DNA from: an uncultured Clostridiaceae bacterium
GTDB lineage: Bacteria > Bacillota > Clostridia > TANB77 > CAG-465
Reading direction: 5' to 3'
Length of the DNA stretch: 64,000 nt
Assembly: GCA_947381905.1 (NCBI GenBank)
Contig: CANCXL010000008.1
Coordinates: 2,037-66,036 of the forward strand
Positions 12,850-51,654 of this stretch are shown here, one piece after another. Within the stretch, counting starts at the first letter, position 1, and each line of letters opens with the position of its first letter. The notes beneath the pieces are model-generated. The model had not been told where the DNA came from. It worked only from the letters and a program-made list of their open reading frames with translations, and searched no databases. A program made the position numbers and the translations under genes.

Positions 12850-13461
12850 TGTAATATACAATTAAAGATGGTGATTTTTTAAGTAAACACTATGGTTTAG
12901 GTCCAGTAGAATTTCTCTGTTTTCTACTAAACATTGCTGCTTAGCCGTTTCCATTTAAAGAAAACACTATTTAGTCACCTAAAAATAGAACTGGATCGCC
13001 ACTTAAGTCCATACTTTAATCCTTAAAAAATCTTATTCTTTAACAGAACAAACATTCTAGAAGTTTTCCTTTGGTGTGCACTTATACAATTATTAGTCTC
13101 TTTTGCAGTAATAATTTCATTACCAGATAAAAAATATATATGGCCCTACACATTTTTTATCTTTTTAGCGGGTAAATCCCAATATTACCACTCAAGACAG
13201 GCTACACTACATATCGTGTCTTGGCACTTTATGTAGGTTTATACCGAACAATACTATCATTATATTTAGAATCATTCAGCCTCAGCGAAAATAGGATTCA
13301 AATTATATGCCGTTATAACTCTATCCTAAATTCTTTACTCCCTGAACACACGCAAAACTGGGCGTTTCGCGCACGGACAAGAAACTTCATCGGTGTGCCT
13401 TTTAGTGGATTTTTAGCCCCACCCTCATAAAAGTTAGCGCAACTAGAATAATGCACCATCG
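12850..13461 (-). ncRNA. ole: Large structured non-coding RNA, candidate OLE (ornate, large, extremophilic) RNA
   Basis: About 610 nt with no credible ORF and visibly higher G+C than the flanks. It contains many local stems, e.g. CAAGACA/TGTCTTG, CTACAT/ATGTAG, GAATC/GATTC, AGGAT/ATCCT, GCG-CGAAA-CGC. It has its own promoter and reads into the 4-TM gene. Confidence 0.5.
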
Positions 13462-13467
13462 ATATTT

Positions 13468-13496
13468 ATTATAACATAGTTTAATAAAAAATGCAA
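13468..13496 (-). promoter_or_regulatory. Sigma-A type promoter for the large ncRNA / oapA transcript
   Basis: On the minus strand: TTGCAT (13496-13491), 17 nt, TATAAT (13473-13468). Confidence 0.55.
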
Positions 13497-29443: not shown

Positions 29444-29764
29444 ATGGCATATAAAAAAGTTATAACATCATCAATTTTAGTTGCAATTTTACTTGCATTT
29501 GTTAATGAGATGGTTTTTGCTGCAACAAATGTAGTTACTAATGATGCAGTTTTAGATGGAACATTAAATGTACTTGTTATGATACAAAAATACTCATGGC
29601 CAGTTGTTGTATTACTTATGATAGTTGCATTATATAAATTTTTTGTAACAGGTTCAGAGGTACTTGCTGATAAAGTAGTTGGACAAAATATGATAGTTGG
29701 TATTTCTGTATTTATGGTAGTTGTTCAATGTTTACCATTATTTTACGCATTATTCATTGTTTAG
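29444..29764 (+). CDS. Secreted or membrane protein of 106 aa (signal peptide plus two hydrophobic helices)
   Basis: GGGGGG RBS and an AxA-type signal peptide end (VFAAT). The topology is reminiscent of VirB2/TrbC-type pilins, but I can claim no sequence motif. Confidence 0.5.
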   Translation: MAYKKVITSSILVAILLAFVNEMVFAATNVVTNDAVLDGTLNVLVMIQKYSWPVVVLLMIVALYKFFVTGSEVLADKVVGQNMIVGISVFMVVVQCLPLFYALFIV

Positions 29765-29840: not shown

Positions 29841-31592
29841 ATGAAGGTACTTTTTGGAATAGCTAATGAAGATACTGTTAAAGGAATAGTTAAATTCTAT
29901 GAAGAAAAATATCATGAAAAAATAGAATATAAAACTGCTTTGTATTTAAAGGACTTTAGAGAGAAAATTACCTCTGAAGATTTTGATAGGGCTGTATTAA
30001 GTGAAGAATTAGATAAAATGCCTACCAAGAGCTATGCTGAGGCAGACAAACTAATATTTGAATATATCGATGGAATAACAAATAACTTTGAAGGAAGAGA
30101 TTTAATCTTAATTTGTTCAGAAAGAAGAAAATTAGGAGATGCTTTCTTAGCTAAATTATTTGTTCTTGGTGTATACACAACACTTACTGGAGCAAACAGA
30201 ACTAAAGGAAAAGTTTGTGCAGCAATTAATTCACCAACAACAAAAAAGGAAGCAAGAACATATTATGGAAATAATACATCTGCAAGTAATGCATATAATG
30301 ATTCTGCAGAAGTAAGCGAATTAGAACTTAGAAAAATCATTGCATACTATAAAAATTTAAATGGAGATAAGAGCAAATATTGTGAGATATTTGATAGACT
30401 TGTTCCACAATATACTACAGAGCAGATGGTAATAATTACTAAATGTTTACCAAAAGATGTTATTGAAGTATTAGAAAAAGACAGTGAATCATATAAAAAT
30501 ATAATTGAGACAAGTAATATACAAATTCCGCAAGTTCAAACAACTCCACCACCAAAATCTGTTGTACAAGAGGCAAAAAGTAATGCAATAGAAATTAAGA
30601 ATGGAAATGAAATTGCTGAAAAAATAGTTATTAAGGAAGTCCCAAAAGAAAAGATAGTTGAAAAAGTAATAGAAAAAGAAGTTGTAAAAGAAGTACCAAA
30701 AGTTATAACACAAGTAGTAGAAAAAGAAGTTGTAAAACAATACTATGATGTCCCTAAAGATTATAGAAAAACAGTAATCTTTGTAGGTGCACCAAAGACT
30801 GGAACAACTTTTTGTATAAATGCAATTGGAACATATTTAGCAAAGCAAAAAGTAAAGACTGCTATGGTAGATATGACTAGAAAAAGGGATTTATATACTA
30901 TTTATACTTATGACAATACTGGAAAAAGAAATATTGCAGGGGATAGCTTAAGATATGCATCAAGTGGAAAGAATGAGCCATTAATTTATGATAAATTAAG
31001 CATATATACAGCTGTACCTGGAGAAGATAGAAAATCATATAATCCAAATTTACTTGTTGATACAATATCTAAAAATAATAATGTTGTATTAATAGATGCA
31101 GATTTTAGTACTCCACTTGATTACTTTAGACTTGCACAAGATATTTATATTGTTCAAGATATGAATATCTTAAATGTTAATCAAATTACATTATTTTTAA
31201 GAGAATTAAAGCAACGTGGAATTGGAATGGAAAAAGTGAAAATAATAATAAATAAGTATGTAGATTGTAGTCTATCAACTAAAGATATTATTGATGGAAT
31301 TGCAACATATACAAGTTACGATTTGAAAATGTTTGACGAGTTATTTAATCCTAAGAGAATACAATATTTTGTATTACCATTTGACGTAGATAACTATACA
31401 AAATATATAGATATGGTATATAAATATTCAAATAAATTTTCAAGTTTTACAAAGAATTTTCAAGATAATCTAAATCAAATAATAAATACAATTTATCCAA
31501 CAAAGGGCGATGTTAGTGTTGAAGAAAAACACTATACACAAGAAACAACAAGTAAGCCTAAAGGTGGATTTGGATTTTTCAAAAGAAAATAG
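29841..31592 (+). CDS. Three-part protein: receiver-like N-domain, KEV-rich repeat linker, and a MinD/ParA/CpaE-like C-domain with a degenerate P-loop
   Basis: C-domain has VIFVGAPKTGTTFCINAIGTYLA in the Walker A position (not the canonical KGGxGKT) and VVLIDADFSTP in a Walker B-like position. Linker is EKIVIKEVPKEKIVEKVIEKEVVKEVPKVITQVVEKEVVKQ. Confidence 0.55.
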   Translation: MKVLFGIANEDTVKGIVKFYEEKYHEKIEYKTALYLKDFREKITSEDFDRAVLSEELDKMPTKSYAEADKLIFEYIDGITNNFEGRDLILICSERRKLGDAFLAKLFVLGVYTTLTGANRTKGKVCAAINSPTTKKEARTYYGNNTSASNAYNDSAEVSELELRKIIAYYKNLNGDKSKYCEIFDRLVPQYTTEQMVIITKCLPKDVIEVLEKDSESYKNIIETSNIQIPQVQTTPPPKSVVQEAKSNAIEIKNGNEIAEKIVIKEVPKEKIVEKVIEKEVVKEVPKVITQVVEKEVVKQYYDVPKDYRKTVIFVGAPKTGTTFCINAIGTYLAKQKVKTAMVDMTRKRDLYTIYTYDNTGKRNIAGDSLRYASSGKNEPLIYDKLSIYTAVPGEDRKSYNPNLLVDTISKNNNVVLIDADFSTPLDYFRLAQDIYIVQDMNILNVNQITLFLRELKQRGIGMEKVKIIINKYVDCSLSTKDIIDGIATYTSYDLKMFDELFNPKRIQYFVLPFDVDNYTKYIDMVYKYSNKFSSFTKNFQDNLNQIINTIYPTKGDVSVEEKHYTQETTSKPKGGFGFFKRK

Positions 31593-31893: not shown

Positions 31894-32310
31894 ATGAAGA
31901 GAATATTAGGAATAGACTATGGAGACGTAAGAGTAGGTCTTGCAATATCTGATCCGTTAGGTATTACAGCACAAGGATTAGAAACACTAGTTATAAACGG
32001 AAGTGATAAGAAGTTTATTAGTGGTATAAGAAAGCTAATGGAAGAATATGACTTTGAAGAGGTTGTTATAGGATATCCTAAAAATATGAATGGAACTAAA
32101 TCTTTAAAGACAGAAAAAGTAGATACTCTTATTCCAAAACTTGAGGAATTAGGTCTTAAGGTTCATAAATGGGATGAGAGACTTACTACCGTTTCTGCGT
32201 ATAGAACAATGAGAGAGATGAACATTTCTCAAAAGGAAAAAAATAGAGTTGCAGATAGATTTGCAGCTACATATATCTTAGAAGGATATTTAAACATGCT
32301 ATCTAAGTAG
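31894..32310 (+). CDS. ruvX: Putative pre-16S rRNA nuclease / Holliday junction resolvase-like YqgF
   Basis: ILGIDYGDVRVGLAISD N-terminus, DERLTT motif, 138 aa. Confidence 0.9.
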   Translation: MKRILGIDYGDVRVGLAISDPLGITAQGLETLVINGSDKKFISGIRKLMEEYDFEEVVIGYPKNMNGTKSLKTEKVDTLIPKLEELGLKVHKWDERLTTVSAYRTMREMNISQKEKNRVADRFAATYILEGYLNMLSK

Positions 32311-32348
32311 CATTTAAATATATAACAAACTAATAGGGAGGAATAAAA

Positions 32349-32687
32349 ATGGATGAAGAATTAGTAGGATGCTCAGGATCTTGTGGATCATGTGGCGGAT
32401 GTGGATCTTCAGATGAAGAAGCATTACCAGTTCTAGTATTAACAGATGAAAATGGTAAAGAAGTTACTTTTGAAAAACTTGATGTTGTAGTTTTAGAAGA
32501 TGGAAGATCTTTTTTAATAGTATCAGAACTTAAAGAAGACTATGAAGAAGAAGTTGAAGTTGTTATTCTTGAAATCAAAGAAGAAGATGGAGAACAAGTA
32601 TATGATACTCTTACAGATGAAGATTTATTAAAAGACGTTTATTCTAGATTTTTAAAACAACAAGGAATTGAAGAAGATGAAGAATAA
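32349..32687 (+). CDS. DUF1292 (YrzB-like) protein with a Cys/Gly-rich N-terminal extension
   Basis: Acidic protein of about 110 aa after ruvX, as in Bacillus yrzL-yrrK-yrzB synteny. N-terminus is CSGSCGSCGGCGS. Confidence 0.75.
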   Translation: MDEELVGCSGSCGSCGGCGSSDEEALPVLVLTDENGKEVTFEKLDVVVLEDGRSFLIVSELKEDYEEEVEVVILEIKEEDGEQVYDTLTDEDLLKDVYSRFLKQQGIEEDEE

Positions 32688-32693
32688 TATAAA

Positions 32694-32723
32694 ATAGAGG
32701 TAGTATAATCTACCTCTATTTTG
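32694..32723 (+). terminator. Intrinsic terminator of the ireB-ruvX-DUF1292 operon
   Basis: ATAGAGGTAG / CTACCTCTAT stem plus a T-run. Confidence 0.75.
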
Positions 32724-32783
32724 CATTTTAGTAGTATAAATATTGTATTTACAAAATAGATATAATAGTGATATAATATAGTT

Positions 32784-32869
32784 GTATATAGGGATGGAGT
32801 TTTATGGACCTATATATGTTGAGATTTTTTGTGACACAAGTCTATGAAAAGTATAGACTTGTGTTTTAT
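32784..32869 (+). ncRNA. Candidate small RNA, unit 1 (about 86 nt)
   Basis: -35 TTTACA at 32748-53 and extended -10 TGATATAAT at 32769-77. Hairpin TATATAGG (32785-92) / CCTATATA (32809-16) with loop GATGGAGTTTTATGGA. U-rich linker. Terminator ACACAAGTCTA / TAGACTTGTGT (32834-64) plus a T-run. Confidence 0.5.
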
Positions 32870-32880
32870 ATATTATTTGT

Positions 32881-32920
32881 ATAATTATGTTAAATATGAT
32901 ATAATAATAGTATGATATAT
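32881..32920 (+). promoter_or_regulatory. Conserved promoter box of small ORF A
   Basis: ataattatgttaaataTGATATAATaatagtatgatatat is nearly identical to 33911-33949 and to the reverse complement of about 51581-51620. Confidence 0.45.
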
Positions 32921-33018
32921 GTTTTATTTTTATAAAAATAATTTTTAAAAATATCTAGAGAAATTAATATTTAAGCTAGCATATACTTGCGTTAGGATCA
33001 AGATACTGGAGGAGATAA

Positions 33019-33198
33019 ATGTCACATCAAAGAAAAGGTTCTGGCGCAAACCCATGCGAAGGAATCTTAGTAATTGTTAATGAAATTTGGAAATCTTTAG
33101 ACGATTTCATAGAAGATTTACCAGAAGATGTTAATTACCAGCATTTTGAGTGGGTAACTAAAAATGCACTTAACAGAATTCGAAATTTTTTTAACTAG
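33019..33198 (+). CDS. Unannotated small protein A (59 aa: MSHQRKGSGANPCEGILVIVNEIWKSLDDFIEDLPEDVNYQHFEWVTKNALNRIRNFFN)
   Basis: One residue below the ORF-track cutoff. GGAGGAG RBS lies 5-7 nt upstream; it has its own promoter box and a downstream terminator. Confidence 0.5.
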   Translation: MSHQRKGSGANPCEGILVIVNEIWKSLDDFIEDLPEDVNYQHFEWVTKNALNRIRNFFN

Positions 33199-33218
33199 AT
33201 TTTAATTAGATTAACAAA

Positions 33219-33305
33219 GTTTAGACTTAATGTCTGCACATCATGAAAATCGATTCTAAGGCGCCCTAGAGATAATTCTTGTAAAGGCTACTTCGTAGTC
33301 TAAAC
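33219..33305 (+). other. Stem-enclosed, GC-richer 87-nt element in the 3' UTR of small ORF A
   Basis: GTTTAGACT (33219-27) pairs with AGTCTAAAC (33297-305). The interior contains AAGGCGCCCTAGAG, which is unusually GC-rich for this window. Confidence 0.35.
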
Positions 33306-33334
33306 TAAATGTTTATTTAGTAAATATTTAGTAA

Positions 33335-33365
33335 TAGCTTAAGATAAATCTTAGGCTATTTTTTG
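33335..33365 (+). terminator. Intrinsic terminator of the small ORF A transcript
   Basis: TAGCTTAAGA / TCTTAGGCTA stem (one G-U pair) plus TTTTTT. Confidence 0.65.
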
Positions 33366-33399
33366 TTGAAAACAGAATCAAATTATGCTATAATATAAT

Positions 33400-33487
33400 T
33401 GATATATAGGAAATGGGTTTTTATAGACCTATATATCTTTGATGTGACGTAAAAGGAGATTTTTTATCTCCTTTTACATTTTTTTAT
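33400..33487 (+). ncRNA. Candidate small RNA, unit 2 (variant loop and a different terminator)
   Basis: -35 TTGAAA at 33366-71, 17 nt, -10 TATAAT at 33389-94. Hairpin ATATATAGG / CCTATATAT with loop AAATGGGTTTTTATAGA. Terminator GTAAAAGGAGAT / ATCTCCTTTTAC (33449-77) plus a T-run. Confidence 0.45.
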
Positions 33488-33508
33488 ATAATATTGACGA
33501 ATTTTTGT

Positions 33509-33570
33509 CTTATATACATTGGAATTTTTTGTAGCGCAAGCCTATGAAAAGTATAGACTTGTGTTTTTGT
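33509..33570 (+). repeat. 5'-truncated copy of the sRNA unit (linker plus terminator only)
   Basis: cttatatacattggaattttttgtaGCGCAAGCCTAtgaaaagtaTAGACTTGTGTtttt aligns with the 3' two-thirds of units 1, 3 and 4. I found no convincing promoter. Confidence 0.5.
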
Positions 33571-33650
33571 ATTTAATAGCAAATATTATATAAATAAATG
33601 TATATATAATAATATTTACAAAATGAATATAATCGTGATATAATATAATT

Positions 33651-33737
33651 GTATATAGGGCTGGGGTTTTATGGACCTATATACATAATGAATTTTTTTG
33701 GCACAAGTCTATGAAAGGTATAGACTTGTGTTTTTGT
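33651..33737 (+). ncRNA. Candidate small RNA, unit 3
   Basis: -35 TTTACA at 33615-20 and TGATATAAT at 33636-44. Hairpin at 33652-59 / 33676-83 with loop GCTGGGGTTTTATGGA. Terminator GCACAAGTCTA / TAGACTTGTGT (33701-31) plus a T-run. Confidence 0.5.
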
Positions 33738-33818
33738 ATTTGATAGAAAATATTATATAAATAAATGTATAATATAATGATGTTTACAAAACAAATATAA
33801 TCATGATATAATATAGTT

Positions 33819-33902
33819 GTATATAGGGTTGGAGTTTTATGGACCTATATATAATGATTTTTATTGGCACAAGTCTATGAAAGGTATGGACTTGTGTTTT
33901 TA
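33819..33902 (+). ncRNA. Candidate small RNA, unit 4
   Basis: -35 TTTACA at 33783-88 and TGATATAAT at 33804-12. Hairpin at 33820-27 / 33844-51 with loop GTTGGAGTTTTATGGA. Terminator at 33867-77 / 33887-97 plus a T-run. Confidence 0.5.
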
Positions 33903-33910
33903 TATTTGAA

Positions 33911-33949
33911 TAATTATGTTAAATGTGATATAATAATAGTATGATATAT
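33911..33949 (+). promoter_or_regulatory. Conserved promoter box of small ORF D
   Basis: taattatgttaaatgTGATATAATaatagtatgatatat, with the -10 at 33929-34. Confidence 0.45.
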
Positions 33950-33961
33950 TATATTTTATTT

Positions 33962-33998
33962 GAGGTATAATTACTAAAAATGTAATTGTACCTTTTTT
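33962..33998 (+). promoter_or_regulatory. Leader hairpin with a U-run (attenuator-like) in the 5' UTR of small ORF D
   Basis: GAGGTATAATTAC (33962-74) pairs with GTAATTGTACC (33982-92), then TTTTTT. The same hairpin occurs in the ORF E leader (51543-51575). Confidence 0.45.
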
Positions 33999-34051
33999 AT
34001 GTAATATATAGTAATACTAGCATTAATCTTCTCCTTTTTGGAGGTGAGAAA

Positions 34052-34246
34052 ATGAACAAGAAAATTCATTGTGATGCTAGTATTACCCCAAATACTAGCA
34101 ATTATGAAGATATAGATAAGCAGTTGGATTATATTTTAGATTATGTAGATAATATTAATAAATATAGAATTAATAAAAAAATTAAGTTTAGCATATCTGA
34201 AATAGAAGACGCTGTATATAATATAAAGAATATACTAAATAAGTAA
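34052..34246 (+). CDS. Small protein D (64 aa), paralog of small protein E
   Basis: ORF track gives 33986..34246. I prefer the ATG at 34052, 7 nt after GGAGGTGAG. The C-terminus KKIKFSISEIEDAVYNIKNIL aligns with E (KKIKSYIDDIEDEIYNLKNNL). Confidence 0.6.
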   Translation: MNKKIHCDASITPNTSNYEDIDKQLDYILDYVDNINKYRINKKIKFSISEIEDAVYNIKNILNK

Positions 34247-34299
34247 TTTTTATCATCACCTCTTCCTTTCTTAGTTTATGGAAGATTTAAGCTAGTGTG

Positions 34300-34332
34300 A
34301 CAAAGCAAATTAATTTTTGCTTTGTTTTTTTG
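34300..34332 (+). terminator. Intrinsic terminator of small ORF D
   Basis: ACAAAGCAAA / TTTGCTTTGT stem plus TTTTTTT. Confidence 0.75.
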
Positions 34333-34532
34333 TAAATATACATTTTATGTTTTTTCTTCTGTTTGTCATACTCTTTTCACAAAATGGCATTATACTTATT
34401 GAGTATATAATAAATTATAATAGTTGTAACATTGTAAAACTATATGTATATGAAGATAATTTTTAGTATAAAGCTACATAATATGTTTATTTTTTTTTAG
34501 CGATATGATATAATATTTCTCGGTGATAAAAA

Positions 34533-35798
34533 ATGGAAAGCGCATATAAATTATTTAATATAAGTGAAGAATTAGAACAGATTGCAAGAAAATCTGAGGA
34601 AGAAATTAAAGAACAATTTAAAAGATTAGAGGAAAATGCATTATATAATCAAGCAAGAGTATTAAAAGCATTTCAAAGTGTACCAATAACAATGGCACAT
34701 TTTGGTAAATCTACAGGATATGGTCATGGTGACTTAGGCAGAGAAGCAATAGAGAAACTTTATGCTAATATATTTGAAACAGAAGATGCATTAGTAAGAA
34801 TACAATTTGTAAGTGGAACACATACGCTTGCAACAGCTTTAAAAGCATTGCTTAATTATGGAGATGAAATGCTTGCTATATCTGGAAGACCATACGATAC
34901 TTTATGTACTGTTATTGGTCTTGAGGAAAACGAAATGTCATTAATTAGTAGGGGAGTAAAATATTCTCAAATAGACTTAGATGATAATGATAATTTTAAA
35001 TGTGAAGATATAAAAGAGTATTTAAAAAATAATAAAGTAAAACTTATTCATATTCAAAGATCAAGAGGATATGCTGTAAGAAAAGCATTACTAATTTCAG
35101 ATATTGAAAATGTAATTAAAGAAATTAGAAGTGTAGATAAAGATGTAATTATATTTGTAGATAATTGCTATGGTGAGTTTACAGAAACTAAAGAACCTAC
35201 AGCAGTTGGAGCAGATATTTGTTGTGGAAGCTTAATAAAGAATGCTGGAGCAGGGCTTTGTGAAATGGGAGGATATGTTGTTGGTAAAGAAAAACTTATA
35301 GAAAAAGTAACTCAAGAGTTATATTGTCCAGGATTAGATAAGGATCATGGCTCAACACTTGGTCAAAACCAAAATATTATTCAAGGATTATTTATGGCAC
35401 CAACAGTTGTAGAATCTGCATTAAAAGCAATGACATTTGCATCTAAATTACTTGAAAATTTAGGATATAATGTATTTCCTACATCAACAGATATAAGAAG
35501 CGATATAGTACAAATAATCAACTTTGGAGATAAGGACAAACTTATTAAATTTATTCAAGGAATACAATATGCATCTCCTGTAGATAGTAATGTTATACCA
35601 ATGCCATGGAGCATGGCAGGCTATGCAGATGAAGTAATAATGGCAGCTGGTACATTCATGGAAGGAGCATCTATTGAGCTATCTGCAGATTCTCCAATGA
35701 GAGAGCCATACGCAGCATATATGCAAGGTGGTTTATCATATGAATCAGCAAAACTTGCAATTTTAATTGCTACTCAAAAAATGTTAGGAGATAAATAA
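34533..35798 (+). CDS. YnbB-type PLP-dependent enzyme (methionine gamma-lyase / aluminium-resistance family)
   Basis: About 420 aa. The N-terminal helical region and the internal SLIKNAGAG segment fit my memory of this family. Confidence 0.7.
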   Translation: MESAYKLFNISEELEQIARKSEEEIKEQFKRLEENALYNQARVLKAFQSVPITMAHFGKSTGYGHGDLGREAIEKLYANIFETEDALVRIQFVSGTHTLATALKALLNYGDEMLAISGRPYDTLCTVIGLEENEMSLISRGVKYSQIDLDDNDNFKCEDIKEYLKNNKVKLIHIQRSRGYAVRKALLISDIENVIKEIRSVDKDVIIFVDNCYGEFTETKEPTAVGADICCGSLIKNAGAGLCEMGGYVVGKEKLIEKVTQELYCPGLDKDHGSTLGQNQNIIQGLFMAPTVVESALKAMTFASKLLENLGYNVFPTSTDIRSDIVQIINFGDKDKLIKFIQGIQYASPVDSNVIPMPWSMAGYADEVIMAAGTFMEGASIELSADSPMREPYAAYMQGGLSYESAKLAILIATQKMLGDK

Positions 35799-48212: not shown

Positions 48213-50534
48213 ATGAGTGATTTATTGGTAGGTTTAAATGATAGGCAAAAAGAGGCAGTAGAATATATGGAAGGACCATTATTGATTTTAGCTGGAGCAG
48301 GATCTGGTAAAACTAGAGTTCTAACATATAAAATTGCGTATTTATTAGAAAAAAATATAGTAAAGCCATGGCAAATTCTTGCTATTACATTTACTAATAA
48401 GGCAGCAAAAGAAATGAAAGAAAGAGTTGAAGGACTTGTAGGACAAGTCTCATCAGATATGTGGCTTGGAACCTTTCACTCTGTTTGTGTGAGAATATTA
48501 AAAAGAGAAATCGAATTACTTGGATACACAAGAGATTTTAATATTTTTGATGAAATAGATAAAGAAAAAGTAATAAAAGAAGTTATGAAAAAACTAAATA
48601 TTGATGAAAAAATGTATCCTGTAGGACTTTTGAAATCTGAAATTAGTAAAGCAAAAGAAGTCATGAAAGATGAAATTGCTTATCAAAAATCTGCTATGGG
48701 AGATTTTAGAAAAGAAGAGATTTCTAAAGTATATACTATGTATCAACAAACATTAAGAAAAAACAATTCTATTGATTTTGATGACATTATAATGTTAACT
48801 GTAAGATTATTTTTAGAAAATCCTGATAGACTAATGTATTATCAAGAAAAGTTTCAATACATTTTAGTTGATGAGTACCAAGATACAAATAAAACACAAT
48901 TTTTACTAATTAGTCTTTTATCATCTGGTACCGGAAATATATGTGTAGTTGGAGATGAATCACAAAGTATTTATGGATTTAGAGGTGCAGATATATCTAA
49001 TATTTTAAATTTTGAAAAAGAATTTCCTAATGCTAAAATTGTAAAACTAGAGGAAAACTATAGAAGTACACAAAACATATTAAATGCAGCAAATGAAGTT
49101 ATAAAAAATAATAGTTCAAAAATAGATAAAGTTTTATGGACTCAAAACGAAGAAGGCGAAAAGATAGATTATAAAACACTTAATAATGAGTATGAAGAAG
49201 TTGAATATGTAGTAGAAAAGATAGACGATATATGCAGAAAAGAATCAAAAAAATATTCGAATTTTGCTGTACTGTTTAGAACTAATGCGCAGGCTCGTGT
49301 ACTTGAAGAAGTTTTTATGAAATCTGGAACACCATATAAATTAATTGGTGGTATAAAATTCTATGCAAGAAAAGAAATAAAAGATATCATAAGTTATTTA
49401 AAATTGATACAAAACAGAAATGATAATATTGCTTTAAAAAGAATTATAAATGAGCCTAAAAGAGGTATAGGAGATACTGCATTAGATAAGCTTGACATGC
49501 TTGCTACACAAAATGGTGTATCTATATTTGAGTTAATACAAAATCCTAATAATTTAACTGGAATTAGAAGCGCTGGAAATATAATGATGTTTAAAGACAT
49601 GATGAATTCATTAATAAAAGCTAAAGATGAAATGAAAGTGTCAGATCTTATTAAAAAAGTTTTAAAAGATTCAGGTTATGAAGATATGCTAAATTCAGAA
49701 GGAACAAAAGAAACTGAAATACGTTTTGATAACCTTATGGAATTTATTGGTGTTGCAATTGAGTTTGAAAATGAAAATGCAGAAAATACACTAGGAGATT
49801 TCTTAGAAAGCATTGCTCTTGTATCAGATGTAGATAATTTAGATGAGTCTACTGAGGCTGTTACACTTATGACAATGCATAGTGCTAAAGGATTAGAATT
49901 TGAAGATGTATTTTTAGTTGGAATGGAAGAAGGATTGTTCCCTTCAAAACGTTCAATTGAAGAGGATGCACAGACAGAAGAAGAAAGAAGACTTTGTTAT
50001 GTCGCAATAACTCGTGCTAAAGAGCATTTATTTATGACAAATACTAAAAAAAGAACACTATATGGTTCTACTACATTTTCTATACCATCAAGATTTATAG
50101 ATGAAATACCAGACAAATTACTTAGTGCAGATTCAATAGAGAATAAAGAAACAAAAGGTCAAAGCACAAGTGTATCAAATCCATGGTTAGATAATGAATA
50201 TAAAAGAGTAGAAACATATATTTCTACTAGAAACAGAGTAAATGAATCTATAGAGAGAAAGTCTACTACGCCAAATATAGGAGTAAGTGTAGATTCATTC
50301 CTTAAAAATTTAGCAGGTGCTGGCGCTACAACTACACCAAAAGTAAATTCGGCATCAAGTGCTAAATATAAAATAGGAATGGAAGTAAAACACAAAAAAT
50401 TTGGAGTAGGCATTATTGAAAACATAGAACCTGAAGGCGACGACTTTAAGTTAGAGATAATGTTTGATGGTACAGGTTTTAAACGACTTATGGCAAATTA
50501 TACTCCACTTGAAATTATAAAGGGAAATGAATAG
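48213..50534 (+). CDS. pcrA: ATP-dependent DNA helicase PcrA (UvrD/Rep family)
   Basis: Walker A AGAGSGKT, DEYQDTN, and helicase motifs III-VI (TMHSAKGLEF, VAITRA). Confidence 0.9.
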   Translation: MSDLLVGLNDRQKEAVEYMEGPLLILAGAGSGKTRVLTYKIAYLLEKNIVKPWQILAITFTNKAAKEMKERVEGLVGQVSSDMWLGTFHSVCVRILKREIELLGYTRDFNIFDEIDKEKVIKEVMKKLNIDEKMYPVGLLKSEISKAKEVMKDEIAYQKSAMGDFRKEEISKVYTMYQQTLRKNNSIDFDDIIMLTVRLFLENPDRLMYYQEKFQYILVDEYQDTNKTQFLLISLLSSGTGNICVVGDESQSIYGFRGADISNILNFEKEFPNAKIVKLEENYRSTQNILNAANEVIKNNSSKIDKVLWTQNEEGEKIDYKTLNNEYEEVEYVVEKIDDICRKESKKYSNFAVLFRTNAQARVLEEVFMKSGTPYKLIGGIKFYARKEIKDIISYLKLIQNRNDNIALKRIINEPKRGIGDTALDKLDMLATQNGVSIFELIQNPNNLTGIRSAGNIMMFKDMMNSLIKAKDEMKVSDLIKKVLKDSGYEDMLNSEGTKETEIRFDNLMEFIGVAIEFENENAENTLGDFLESIALVSDVDNLDESTEAVTLMTMHSAKGLEFEDVFLVGMEEGLFPSKRSIEEDAQTEEERRLCYVAITRAKEHLFMTNTKKRTLYGSTTFSIPSRFIDEIPDKLLSADSIENKETKGQSTSVSNPWLDNEYKRVETYISTRNRVNESIERKSTTPNIGVSVDSFLKNLAGAGATTTPKVNSASSAKYKIGMEVKHKKFGVGIIENIEPEGDDFKLEIMFDGTGFKRLMANYTPLEIIKGNE

Positions 50535-51299: not shown

Positions 51300-51485
51300 T
51301 TATAAGTTATTTTTTAAATTATAAATTTCGTCTTCTATGTCATCAATGTATGATTTGATTTTTTTAGATAATCTAAATCTTTCTAAATCATATATAATAG
51401 ATAACATATTGTTAAGACCTTTATTTATTAAATCATAATTCATGCTATTTTGGGTGTCAGCATGATAATTACAATTTTTCTTCAT
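51300..51485 (-). CDS. Small protein E (61 aa), paralog of small protein D
   Basis: ORF track gives 51300..51515. I prefer the ATG at 51485, 7 nt after AAGGAGGTGG. The C-terminal half aligns with D. Confidence 0.6.
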   Translation of the reverse strand: MKKNCNYHADTQNSMNYDLINKGLNNMLSIIYDLERFRLSKKIKSYIDDIEDEIYNLKNNL

Positions 51486-51542
51486 AAAATCCACCTCCTT
51501 AAAGTGAGGGCTCATGCTGATACTACTATATATTATACAAAT

Positions 51543-51575
51543 GAGGTATAATTACGATTTTGGTAATTATACCTC
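51543..51575 (-). promoter_or_regulatory. Leader hairpin in the 5' UTR of small ORF E (homolog of 33962-33998)
   Basis: GAGGTATAATTAC / GTAATTATACCTC, a perfect 13-bp stem. The promoter -10 (GGTATAAT) is at 51610..51603 on the minus strand. Confidence 0.45.
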
Positions 51576-51654
51576 AAATAAAATATAATATATCATACTA
51601 TTATTATACCATATTTTGCACATTATTTCAAAGTTATAAACTATTAACTATTTA

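Follow-up and report, generated by a model that had tools for sequence, protein, structure and literature searches.

Candidate two-site antisense RNA genes arrayed beside two small-protein genes in an uncultured gut Clostridia lineage

What is the function of a head-to-tail array of small RNA (sRNA)-like genes that lies between a DUF1292 gene (32349-32687) and a ynbB-like gene (34533-35798) in an uncultured Clostridiaceae bacterium (GTDB lineage CAG-465)? The array was described in an earlier note on 64,000 nucleotides (nt) of contig CANCXL010000008.1 (assembly GCA_947381905.1, positions 2,037 to 66,036 of the forward strand), a stretch here called the window, to whose coordinates all positions refer. 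The interval between the two flanking genes is in part coding, since it also contains two genes for small proteins, A (33019-33198) and B (34052-34246), which the note left unmentioned. Our preferred reading, to which we assign a probability of roughly 0.7, is that the units are dedicated antisense RNA genes directed against the adjacent genes A and B, each RNA pairing with its mRNA at two sites and repressing its translation in a manner resembling a type I toxin-antitoxin (TA) system.

Judged from its sequence, each unit is a putative independent gene for a predicted non-coding RNA of ~85 nt, with a sigma-A-type promoter of its own. The units comprise the following features, with scores from the covariance model given in bits.

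32748-32870, + strand: sRNA unit U1; promoter 32748-32777, predicted +1 at G32784; 50.6 bits
32784-32817, + strand: U1 hairpin; arms 32785-32792 and 32809-32816, 16-nt loop
32817-32832, + strand: U1 linker; terminator 32833-32865, then a T-run
33366-33485, + strand: sRNA unit U2, cognate to gene A; promoter 33366-33394, hairpin 33402-33437; 54.4 bits
33413-33420, + strand: U2 loop segment AUGGGUUU, complementary to gene A site 2
33436-33450, + strand: U2 linker UCUUUGAUGUGACGU, complementary to gene A site 1, covering the AUG
33449-33477, + strand: U2 terminator, then a T-run
33487-33568, + strand: decayed unit U2b, a type-2 hairpin relic; 21.7 bits only
33507-33517, + strand: remaining 3' arm of U2b, GTCTTATATAC; linker 33518-33534, terminator 33535-33563
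33615-33737, + strand: sRNA unit U3, cognate to gene B; promoter 33615-33644, hairpin 33651-33685; 51.7 bits
33662-33667, + strand: U3 loop segment UGGGGU, complementary to gene B site 2
33684-33700, + strand: U3 linker CAUAAUGAAUUUUUUUG, complementary to gene B site 1
33700-33732, + strand: U3 terminator
33783-33903, + strand: sRNA unit U4; promoter 33783-33812, hairpin 33819-33853; 51.1 bits
33852-33865, + strand: U4 linker; terminator 33866-33898

The earlier note counted four complete units and one truncated at its 5' end. The four are intact. The fifth, U2b, when set beside the complete type-2 unit of L005 (related loci are designated by L numbers), proves to be what remains of a second subtype of hairpin that has lost the 5' arm and the -35/-10 spacing. 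The consensus promoters assigned to the units, TTTACA-N18-TATAAT in three of them and TTGAAA-N17-TATAAT in U2, proved to be exactly the four top sigma-70-like matches in 32300-34700 (11 of 12 positions plus TG), and the same region holds nine terminator-like sites against 0.2 expected. RNA folding of the intact units reproduced the proposed succession of a 9-bp 5' hairpin with a 16-17-nt loop, an unpaired linker of ~15 nt and a terminator, with z scores of -4.3 to -6.0. The terminators are strong as stated, but they are not all the same, since U2 carries GTAAAAGGAGAT..ATCTCCTTTTAC instead. The spacing of ~166-168 bp between direct repeats agrees with the output of Tandem Repeats Finder (period 168 bp, 2.4 copies, 89% matches, 33511-33909). 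The 18-nt loop/arm motif GTTTTATGGACCTATATA is present in four copies in the window against 0.19 expected, the terminator motif in four against 0.00 expected, and the covariance model discriminates between the strands (~50 versus ~23 bits). The hairpin is predicted to begin at +1 in each intact unit, 7-8 nt from the -10 box; its first base is always a purine, whose partner is the base that follows the 3' arm, so that the predicted RNA would start with a fully paired 5' end.

The non-coding nature of the product, also proposed earlier, is borne out by the relatives. Short open reading frames (ORFs) within the units are not conserved: U3 reads ATG GAC CTA TAT ACA TAA, and in U2 ATA replaces ATG. 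In the loop of most homologues AUA takes the place of AUG, and the frame is not conserved, which excludes a conserved peptide, and peptide coding within the units was accordingly rejected as a candidate function. The note had recognised no known family, and neither the window nor any of 13 homologous loci gave a relevant match in Rfam 15, at the gathering score or at E<10, noise aside; the Rfam matches in the window (OLE, RF03531 and one tRNA) all lie away from the array.

What the note called a U-rich linker and a G-rich loop look like two target-recognition elements. Their candidate targets lie at the starts of genes A and B, both of which have a Shine-Dalgarno (SD) sequence.

33019-33198, + strand: gene A, encoding a hydrophilic protein of 59 amino acids (aa)
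33019-33033, + strand: gene A target site 1, AUGUCACAUCAAAGA; start codon and codons 2-5
33048-33055, + strand: gene A target site 2, AAACCCAU, at +30
34052-34246, + strand: gene B, encoding a hydrophilic protein of 64 aa; terminator 34299-34326
34057-34073, + strand: gene B target site 1, CAAGAAAAUUCAUUGUG; codons 3-8
34085-34090, + strand: gene B target site 2, ACCCCA, at +34

The U2 linker is complementary to the start of gene A over 15 bp (-22.4 kcal/mol), a fit equalled by none of 413 background start regions, and nowhere in the 64-kb window does that linker find a better complement than the gene A start; the U2 loop matches gene A site 2 at +30 over eight Watson-Crick bp. The U3 linker matches gene B over 17 bp (-19.2 kcal/mol, with one of the 413 background regions as good), which is its best + strand match in the window and was also detected as inverted repeat I12. 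Linkers match the start codon and codons 1-8, and loops match C-rich codons at +30 to +43. The two sites are antiparallel, such that the RNA from loop to linker reads as the antisense of the first ~40 nt of the ORF, with only the hairpin 3'-arm segment departing from an antisense copy. Duplex folding of long sequences gave mostly meaningless long structures, yet it exposed the match between U2 and gene A. When the loops only were scanned against the whole window, all matches fell on the antisense strand of the units themselves or at positions antisense to genes; on their sense strands, the genes of the 64-kb window offered no further significant target.

The remaining units fit less well locally and in part fit the alleles of other strains. 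The U1 linker fits the gene B allele of L007 (15 bp, -14.6 kcal/mol, two of 413 as good), while a U1-cognate gene B allele was absent from the collected sequences. The match of U4 to the gene B start is imperfect (-9.8 kcal/mol, 20 of 413 as good); by eye, its loop UUGGAGU would fit ACUCCAA, one base off the ACCCCAA of the window. The U2b linker matches the gene B start weakly (-12.2 kcal/mol, 20 of 413 as good). Conversely, unit 1 of L007 fits the gene B allele of the window, and the upstream unit of L142 predicts yet another gene A allele. Such orphan units may either answer to further paralogues elsewhere in the genomes or be RNAs against the alleles of other strains.

The RNA and gene segments change together across lineages. 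At site 1 of gene A the pairs are UCUUUGAUGUGAC/GUCACAUCAAAGA in the window, GUGUUGUAC/GUACAACAC in L142, UUUGUAGUAUG/CAUACUACAAA in L146 and UUGUUAUGUUAUGUC/GACAUUACAUAACAA in L002, and at site 2 they are AUGGGUUU/AAACCCAU, AAGGGCUU/AAGCCCUU and AUUGGUUU/AAACCAAU in the window, L142 and L002, respectively. For gene B, site 1 comprises 17 bp in L007, AUAGUAAUUCAA in L006 and UGAACAGAUUUUUAUU in L003, and site 2 reads UGGGGU/ACCCCA in the window, UUGGUGU/ACACCAA in L006, AUUGGGU/ACCCAAU in L003 and UUGUGG/CCACAA in L007. Site 2 pairs fall at a constant codon position across lineages. The eight cognate scores lie 2.9-8.2 standard deviations above the mean of 938 background start regions. Among the 40,320 permutations of the eight RNA/gene pairs, no other assignment scored as high as the cognate one at site 1 or over the two sites together, and at site 2 alone the cognate assignment ranked within 2/40,320. 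With the best score taken over all units of each locus, every gene had its own locus on top, unit 1 of L007 tying for the gene B of the window. In L003 the single unit and gene B are divergent, so pairing there must occur in trans. Within genes A and B, no part evolves faster than the codons targeted; between close orthologues the first 27 nt are 59-89% identical as opposed to 88-95% for the remainder.

The search for homologues that the earlier note proposed did find relatives. With each species represented by one genome, an exact-pattern scan located the hairpin in four metagenome-assembled genomes of uncultured Clostridia, from a Hadza human, a rabbit, a water deer and one further sample, and many more metagenome contigs were found via the A and B proteins. 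The 5' hairpin is near-constant in these relatives, whereas the linkers differ and at least four unrelated terminators occur. Among 31 distinct hairpins, 99.6% of cells are paired in an alignment that was model-fitted and so leans towards structure; five pairs never vary and two change on both sides (pair 1-41 as AU, GC or GU; pair 8-34 as GC or AU). In the second subtype AAGAU/RUCUU replaces GG/CC at the top of the stem, a compensatory exchange. The type-2 hairpin, UAUAUAAGAU/RUCUUAUAUA, is followed by the terminator GGAGAUAUG..CAUAUCUCC and is intact in L001 and L005. Type-2 units number five in L001 (6100-6620 and 7874-7909), and single ones occur in L005 (6190-6225), L044 (2236-2272, between rpsR and a yabG-like gene), L072 and L082.

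The number of units varies between close strains, in which the syntenic locus has three or four units where gene A is absent, and four plus the relic where gene A is present. Gene B homologues follow the array in L006/L141 and L007-L009. Contigs with gene B or its paralogue B2 often end ~100 nt upstream of the gene (L010-L014, L016-L020, L151-L154 and L157-L159), which suggests that assembly stops at the leader repeat or at the sRNA array and that arrays are under-represented in assemblies.

A and B are real genes, under purifying selection except in their fast-evolving N-terminal codons, since dN/dS (the ratio of nonsynonymous to synonymous substitution rates) is 0.06-0.23 outside the N-terminus and an SD is present; the values are 0.06-0.20 for gene A (codons 16-59) and 0.13-0.23 for gene B. 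Neither protein has a match in Pfam, NCBIfam, PHROG, PADLOC or PDB sequences, and sets of 5.8 billion and 1.84 billion proteins contained only a handful of close relatives, none of them annotated. Homology between the A and B proteins was undetectable by profile comparison. In the AlphaFold2 model of the gene B product (mean predicted local distance difference test score 80.7) residues 1-15 are disordered and residues 16-36 and 42-63 form helices, and a Foldseek search with this model returned generic helical hairpins only, the top ones being the DHp domains of GacS/RetS at a non-significant E=0.35. The grand average of hydropathy (GRAVY) values are -0.53 (gene A), -0.71 and -0.81, the highest Kyte-Doolittle 15-residue window is at most 1.03, and no transmembrane (TM) segment is predicted.

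Gene A is flanked by units in four chromosomal contexts, namely the array of the window, beside hisS, between nth and rmuC, and in L002, and we infer from this that gene A and its RNA move as a cassette. The A proteins of the lineages compared are only 41% identical. Two non-coding elements border the gene.

32874-33018, + strand: promoter and 5' untranslated region (UTR) of gene A; -10 at 32900-32905 with TG
33205-33365, + strand: 3' UTR element of gene A; core CGATTCTAAGGCGCCCTAGAGATAATTCT at 33247-33275, then terminator 33333-33360

The 5' UTR motif CATATACTTGCGTTAGRAYCA is conserved in L002, L005, L142, L146 and L155. The 3' UTR element (~95 nt) accompanies gene A in every context. Its core CGATTCTAAGGCGCCCTAGAGATAATTCT is near-invariant in the window, L002, L005, L142, L146 (twice) and L155, exceeding the N-terminal codons of gene A in conservation, and the second copy in L146 lies upstream of another sRNA unit. 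The element has no Rfam match, and its predicted fold contains one compensatory pair only.

Gene B has a structured leader, which it shares with a paralogue elsewhere in the window.

33906-34051, + strand: promoter (33906-33934) and 5' UTR of gene B
51300-51620, - strand: paralogue B2, 61 aa, ATG at 51485 (ORF 51300-51485), sharing the promoter and leader hairpin of gene B

The leader of gene B contains a conserved 13-bp hairpin followed by a T-run (33962-33994) and an anti-SD CUUC (~34028-34034) that can pair with the SD GGAGG (34040-34044); hairpin and pairing are kept in seven homologues without compensatory changes. Genes A and B share 82% identity along 79 nt of promoter and leader (repeat D2; 32874-32952 and 33903-33981). 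B2 lies downstream of a 514-aa Sel1/TPR-like gene.

How might such RNAs act? Binding of an sRNA within the first codons blocks initiation, as is established for other sRNAs. In the model that we propose, the loop would make the first contact with the mRNA and the linker would then pair across the start codon. The resulting duplex over the start and first codons would block 30S binding and may form a substrate for RNase III, and translation of A and B would be off for as long as transcription of the RNAs continues. With several RNA genes for each target, and with strong promoters, RNA would be in excess over mRNA, and the paired 5' end probably stabilizes the RNA. In gene B the conserved leader hairpin and the short anti-SD/SD pairing would add to this control. 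Type I TA systems whose antitoxin genes are adjacent and non-overlapping operate in this manner (PMC8167048, PMC8594479). We infer weakly that the module acts as a type I TA system or an addiction cassette would, because gene A travels with its own RNA, the codons and RNAs co-evolve fast and the arrays include units that fit the alleles of other strains.

Several observations weigh against dedicated antisense control. In the comparison of cognate pairs the cognate unit of each locus was picked as the best-matching one, and the promoters, terminators and +1 positions are predictions from sequence. U1 has no good fit to the window's own gene B, and U1, U4 and three of the four units of L006 are without a good target in their own locus. 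Type-2 units have no complementary target in any collected sequence, and B2 has neither an adjacent sRNA unit nor a cognate unit anywhere in the window. Site 2 is only 6-8 nt long, and in the gene B leader just 4 bp join anti-SD and SD, with compensatory changes absent. Conservation of the hairpin stem exceeds what base pairing by itself would require. Lastly, A and B are hydrophilic and have no TM segment, unlike typical type I toxins (PMC8167048).

The last point bears on the alternative closest to the preferred reading and in fact a stronger form of it, that this is a genuine type I TA system in which A and B inhibit growth, the RNAs are antitoxins and the arrays neutralize the alleles of other strains. 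We regard this as possible, at well under even odds. An RNA complementary to the translation start region, proteins of 59-64 aa, a long structured 5' UTR with an SD that can be sequestered, paralogues in one genome, an A-plus-RNA cassette at four chromosomal sites, a narrow distribution without family annotation, and rapid co-evolution of target and RNA are all in accord with it. Tandem repeats, SD/anti-SD pairs and 5' stem-loops are hallmarks of such loci, and SD/anti-SD pairing and 5' stem-loops keep type I toxin mRNAs inert (PMC8594479). Type I toxins are, however, typically small (<60 aa) hydrophobic membrane proteins, with SymE and RalR as non-membrane exceptions (PMC8167048). The A and B proteins agree with such toxins in size (59-64 aa) and differ in hydrophobicity (GRAVY -0.5 to -0.8, no TM segment). 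B2 moreover stands without an adjacent RNA gene, and purifying selection would fit any functional protein equally. As A and B have no hydrophobic segment, we file the system as one that would work like a type I TA and not as a TA member.

A more specific proposal, which we hold to be more doubtful again, is an RNA-controlled addiction or immunity cassette in which a soluble helical-hairpin protein would be the toxin and its hypervariable N-terminal codons the address, read by the antitoxin RNA at two sites. That RNA would then be modular, with loop and linker carried on a constant hairpin scaffold, and chromosomal arrays would be an RNA repertoire, some of its members fitting the alleles of other strains, that protects against incoming cassettes.

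Two groups of known antisense systems resemble the locus. The par locus of pAD1 (Fst/RNA II), CopA/CopT and Sok/hok employ loop-initiated antisense RNAs that overlap or converge with their target, one copy each. The array resembles them in its proposed multi-site binding by a loop and single-stranded segments over the initiation region (PMC8594479, for general features) and differs in having separate, multiplied RNA genes in either direction relative to the target. With the type I TA loci tisB/istR-1, zorO/orzO and shoB/ohsC of E. coli (PMC8167048) it shares an adjacent, non-overlapping sRNA gene, a protein of ~60 aa or less, short and specific trans complementarity to the 5' part of the mRNA, a structured leader, several copies and a narrow distribution. 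In contrast to that group, each target here has several head-to-tail RNA genes with their own promoters and terminators, both sites lie within the coding region and the proteins are hydrophilic helical hairpins.

Sibling trans-acting sRNAs offer a different explanation, in which the units would regulate many distant mRNAs through the hairpin loop and the match to A and B would be incidental or one of many. LhrC1-4 of Listeria are tandem sibling sRNAs, and the earlier note had likened the array to these and to the csRNAs of streptococci. The likeness stands as regards multi-copy genes with their own promoters, but as the best comparison it gives way to antisense RNAs dedicated to A and B, which fit better. 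The csRNAs, PrrF1/2, OmrA/B and AbcR1/2 (PMC4211561) also have tandem sRNA genes of 80-100 nt with their own promoters and Rho-independent terminators, and conserved and variable segments alternate in them. Single units apart from A and B, such as that of L044 between rpsR and the yabG-like gene, and orphan and type-2 units without a local target would likewise be expected of siblings. Those siblings, however, act on many distant mRNAs, mostly through C/U-rich anti-SD motifs, under one transcription factor, whereas here the variable segments are precisely those that follow the adjacent gene's codons, the loops are rich in G and not of the C/U-rich anti-SD kind, the sense strand of the 64-kb window offers no other significant target, and Rfam has no match. 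We consider a sibling role improbable.

Poorer still are the prospects of a repetitive DNA element without RNA function, whose complementarity would be left over from partial inverted duplications. Copy number does vary among strains (three, four or five units per locus), one copy (U2b) has decayed, assemblies break at the array and the hairpin stem is near-invariant. The complementarity has nonetheless been kept through many substitutions between A proteins only 41% identical, the base pair containing +1 covaries, and all intact copies keep strong promoters and terminators; terminal inverted repeats and target-site duplications were not found, and viral contigs gave no match to the units. A cis-acting leader or attenuator of the gene B operon, or peptide genes within the units, is hardly credible, for although in the window the units directly precede gene B in the same orientation and some have an SD-like GGAG followed by AUG, a strong terminator closes each unit before the next begins from its own promoter, the L003 unit is divergent from gene B, and AUA in most homologue loops and unconserved frames speak against coding.

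Head-to-tail short RNA units upstream of a protein gene also recall ToxI of type III TA systems. ToxI consists of 36-nt repeats in one transcript that is cut, and then bound, by the toxin endoribonuclease. Here every unit is its own predicted transcription unit with promoter and terminator, the RNA is complementary to an mRNA, no nuclease gene is present, and the neighbouring genes encode 59-64 aa and have no PADLOC match. Two further ideas were set aside, a CsrA sponge acting via GGA motifs in the loop, as many homologues are without GGA, and activation of gene B by the G-rich loop as an SD mimic or anti-anti-SD, as no consistent pairing was apparent by eye.

Other features of the window and of the searches lie outside this argument. 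A full-length OLE RNA (RF01071, 390 bits; 12852-13475, - strand) is present, and RF03531, a C. difficile sRNA inside a helicase gene, scores just over threshold inside a pcrA-like ORF (49950-50048, + strand); both are consistent with an anaerobic Firmicute related to Peptostreptococcales/Clostridia. Two ORFs at 29444-29764 and 29841-31592 (106 and 583 aa) have no Pfam or NCBIfam match and are syntenic upstream of ireB-ruvX-DUF1292 in related contigs. A degenerate hairpin pattern used on metagenomes was too loose, giving at least 120 matches that were mostly chance, and among the matches listed only L044, L072 and L082 are real. Freshwater metagenome loci L030, L045, L057, L092, L106 and L133, likewise matched by this loose pattern, have an unrelated recurring hairpin, TATATAAGACACAAGAGCTTTTATTGTCTTATATA followed by AGACTTAAAGTGTGGGTTCTGCATTTGCAG.

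The array adds an sRNA family absent from Rfam and two unannotated small-protein families to an uncultured lineage of gut Clostridia. It is unusual for a computational find to arrive with likely targets and a specific, mutable model of two-site pairing, and the way in which loop and linker have changed in step with the target's first codons amounts to a natural compensatory-mutation experiment. The modular scaffold, a constant hairpin with exchangeable address segments and terminators, could serve as a reusable design. If A and B are toxic, type I TA biology would come to include soluble hairpin proteins and antitoxin arrays of several genes; otherwise, the locus would be a compact case of dedicated sRNA control of small proteins.

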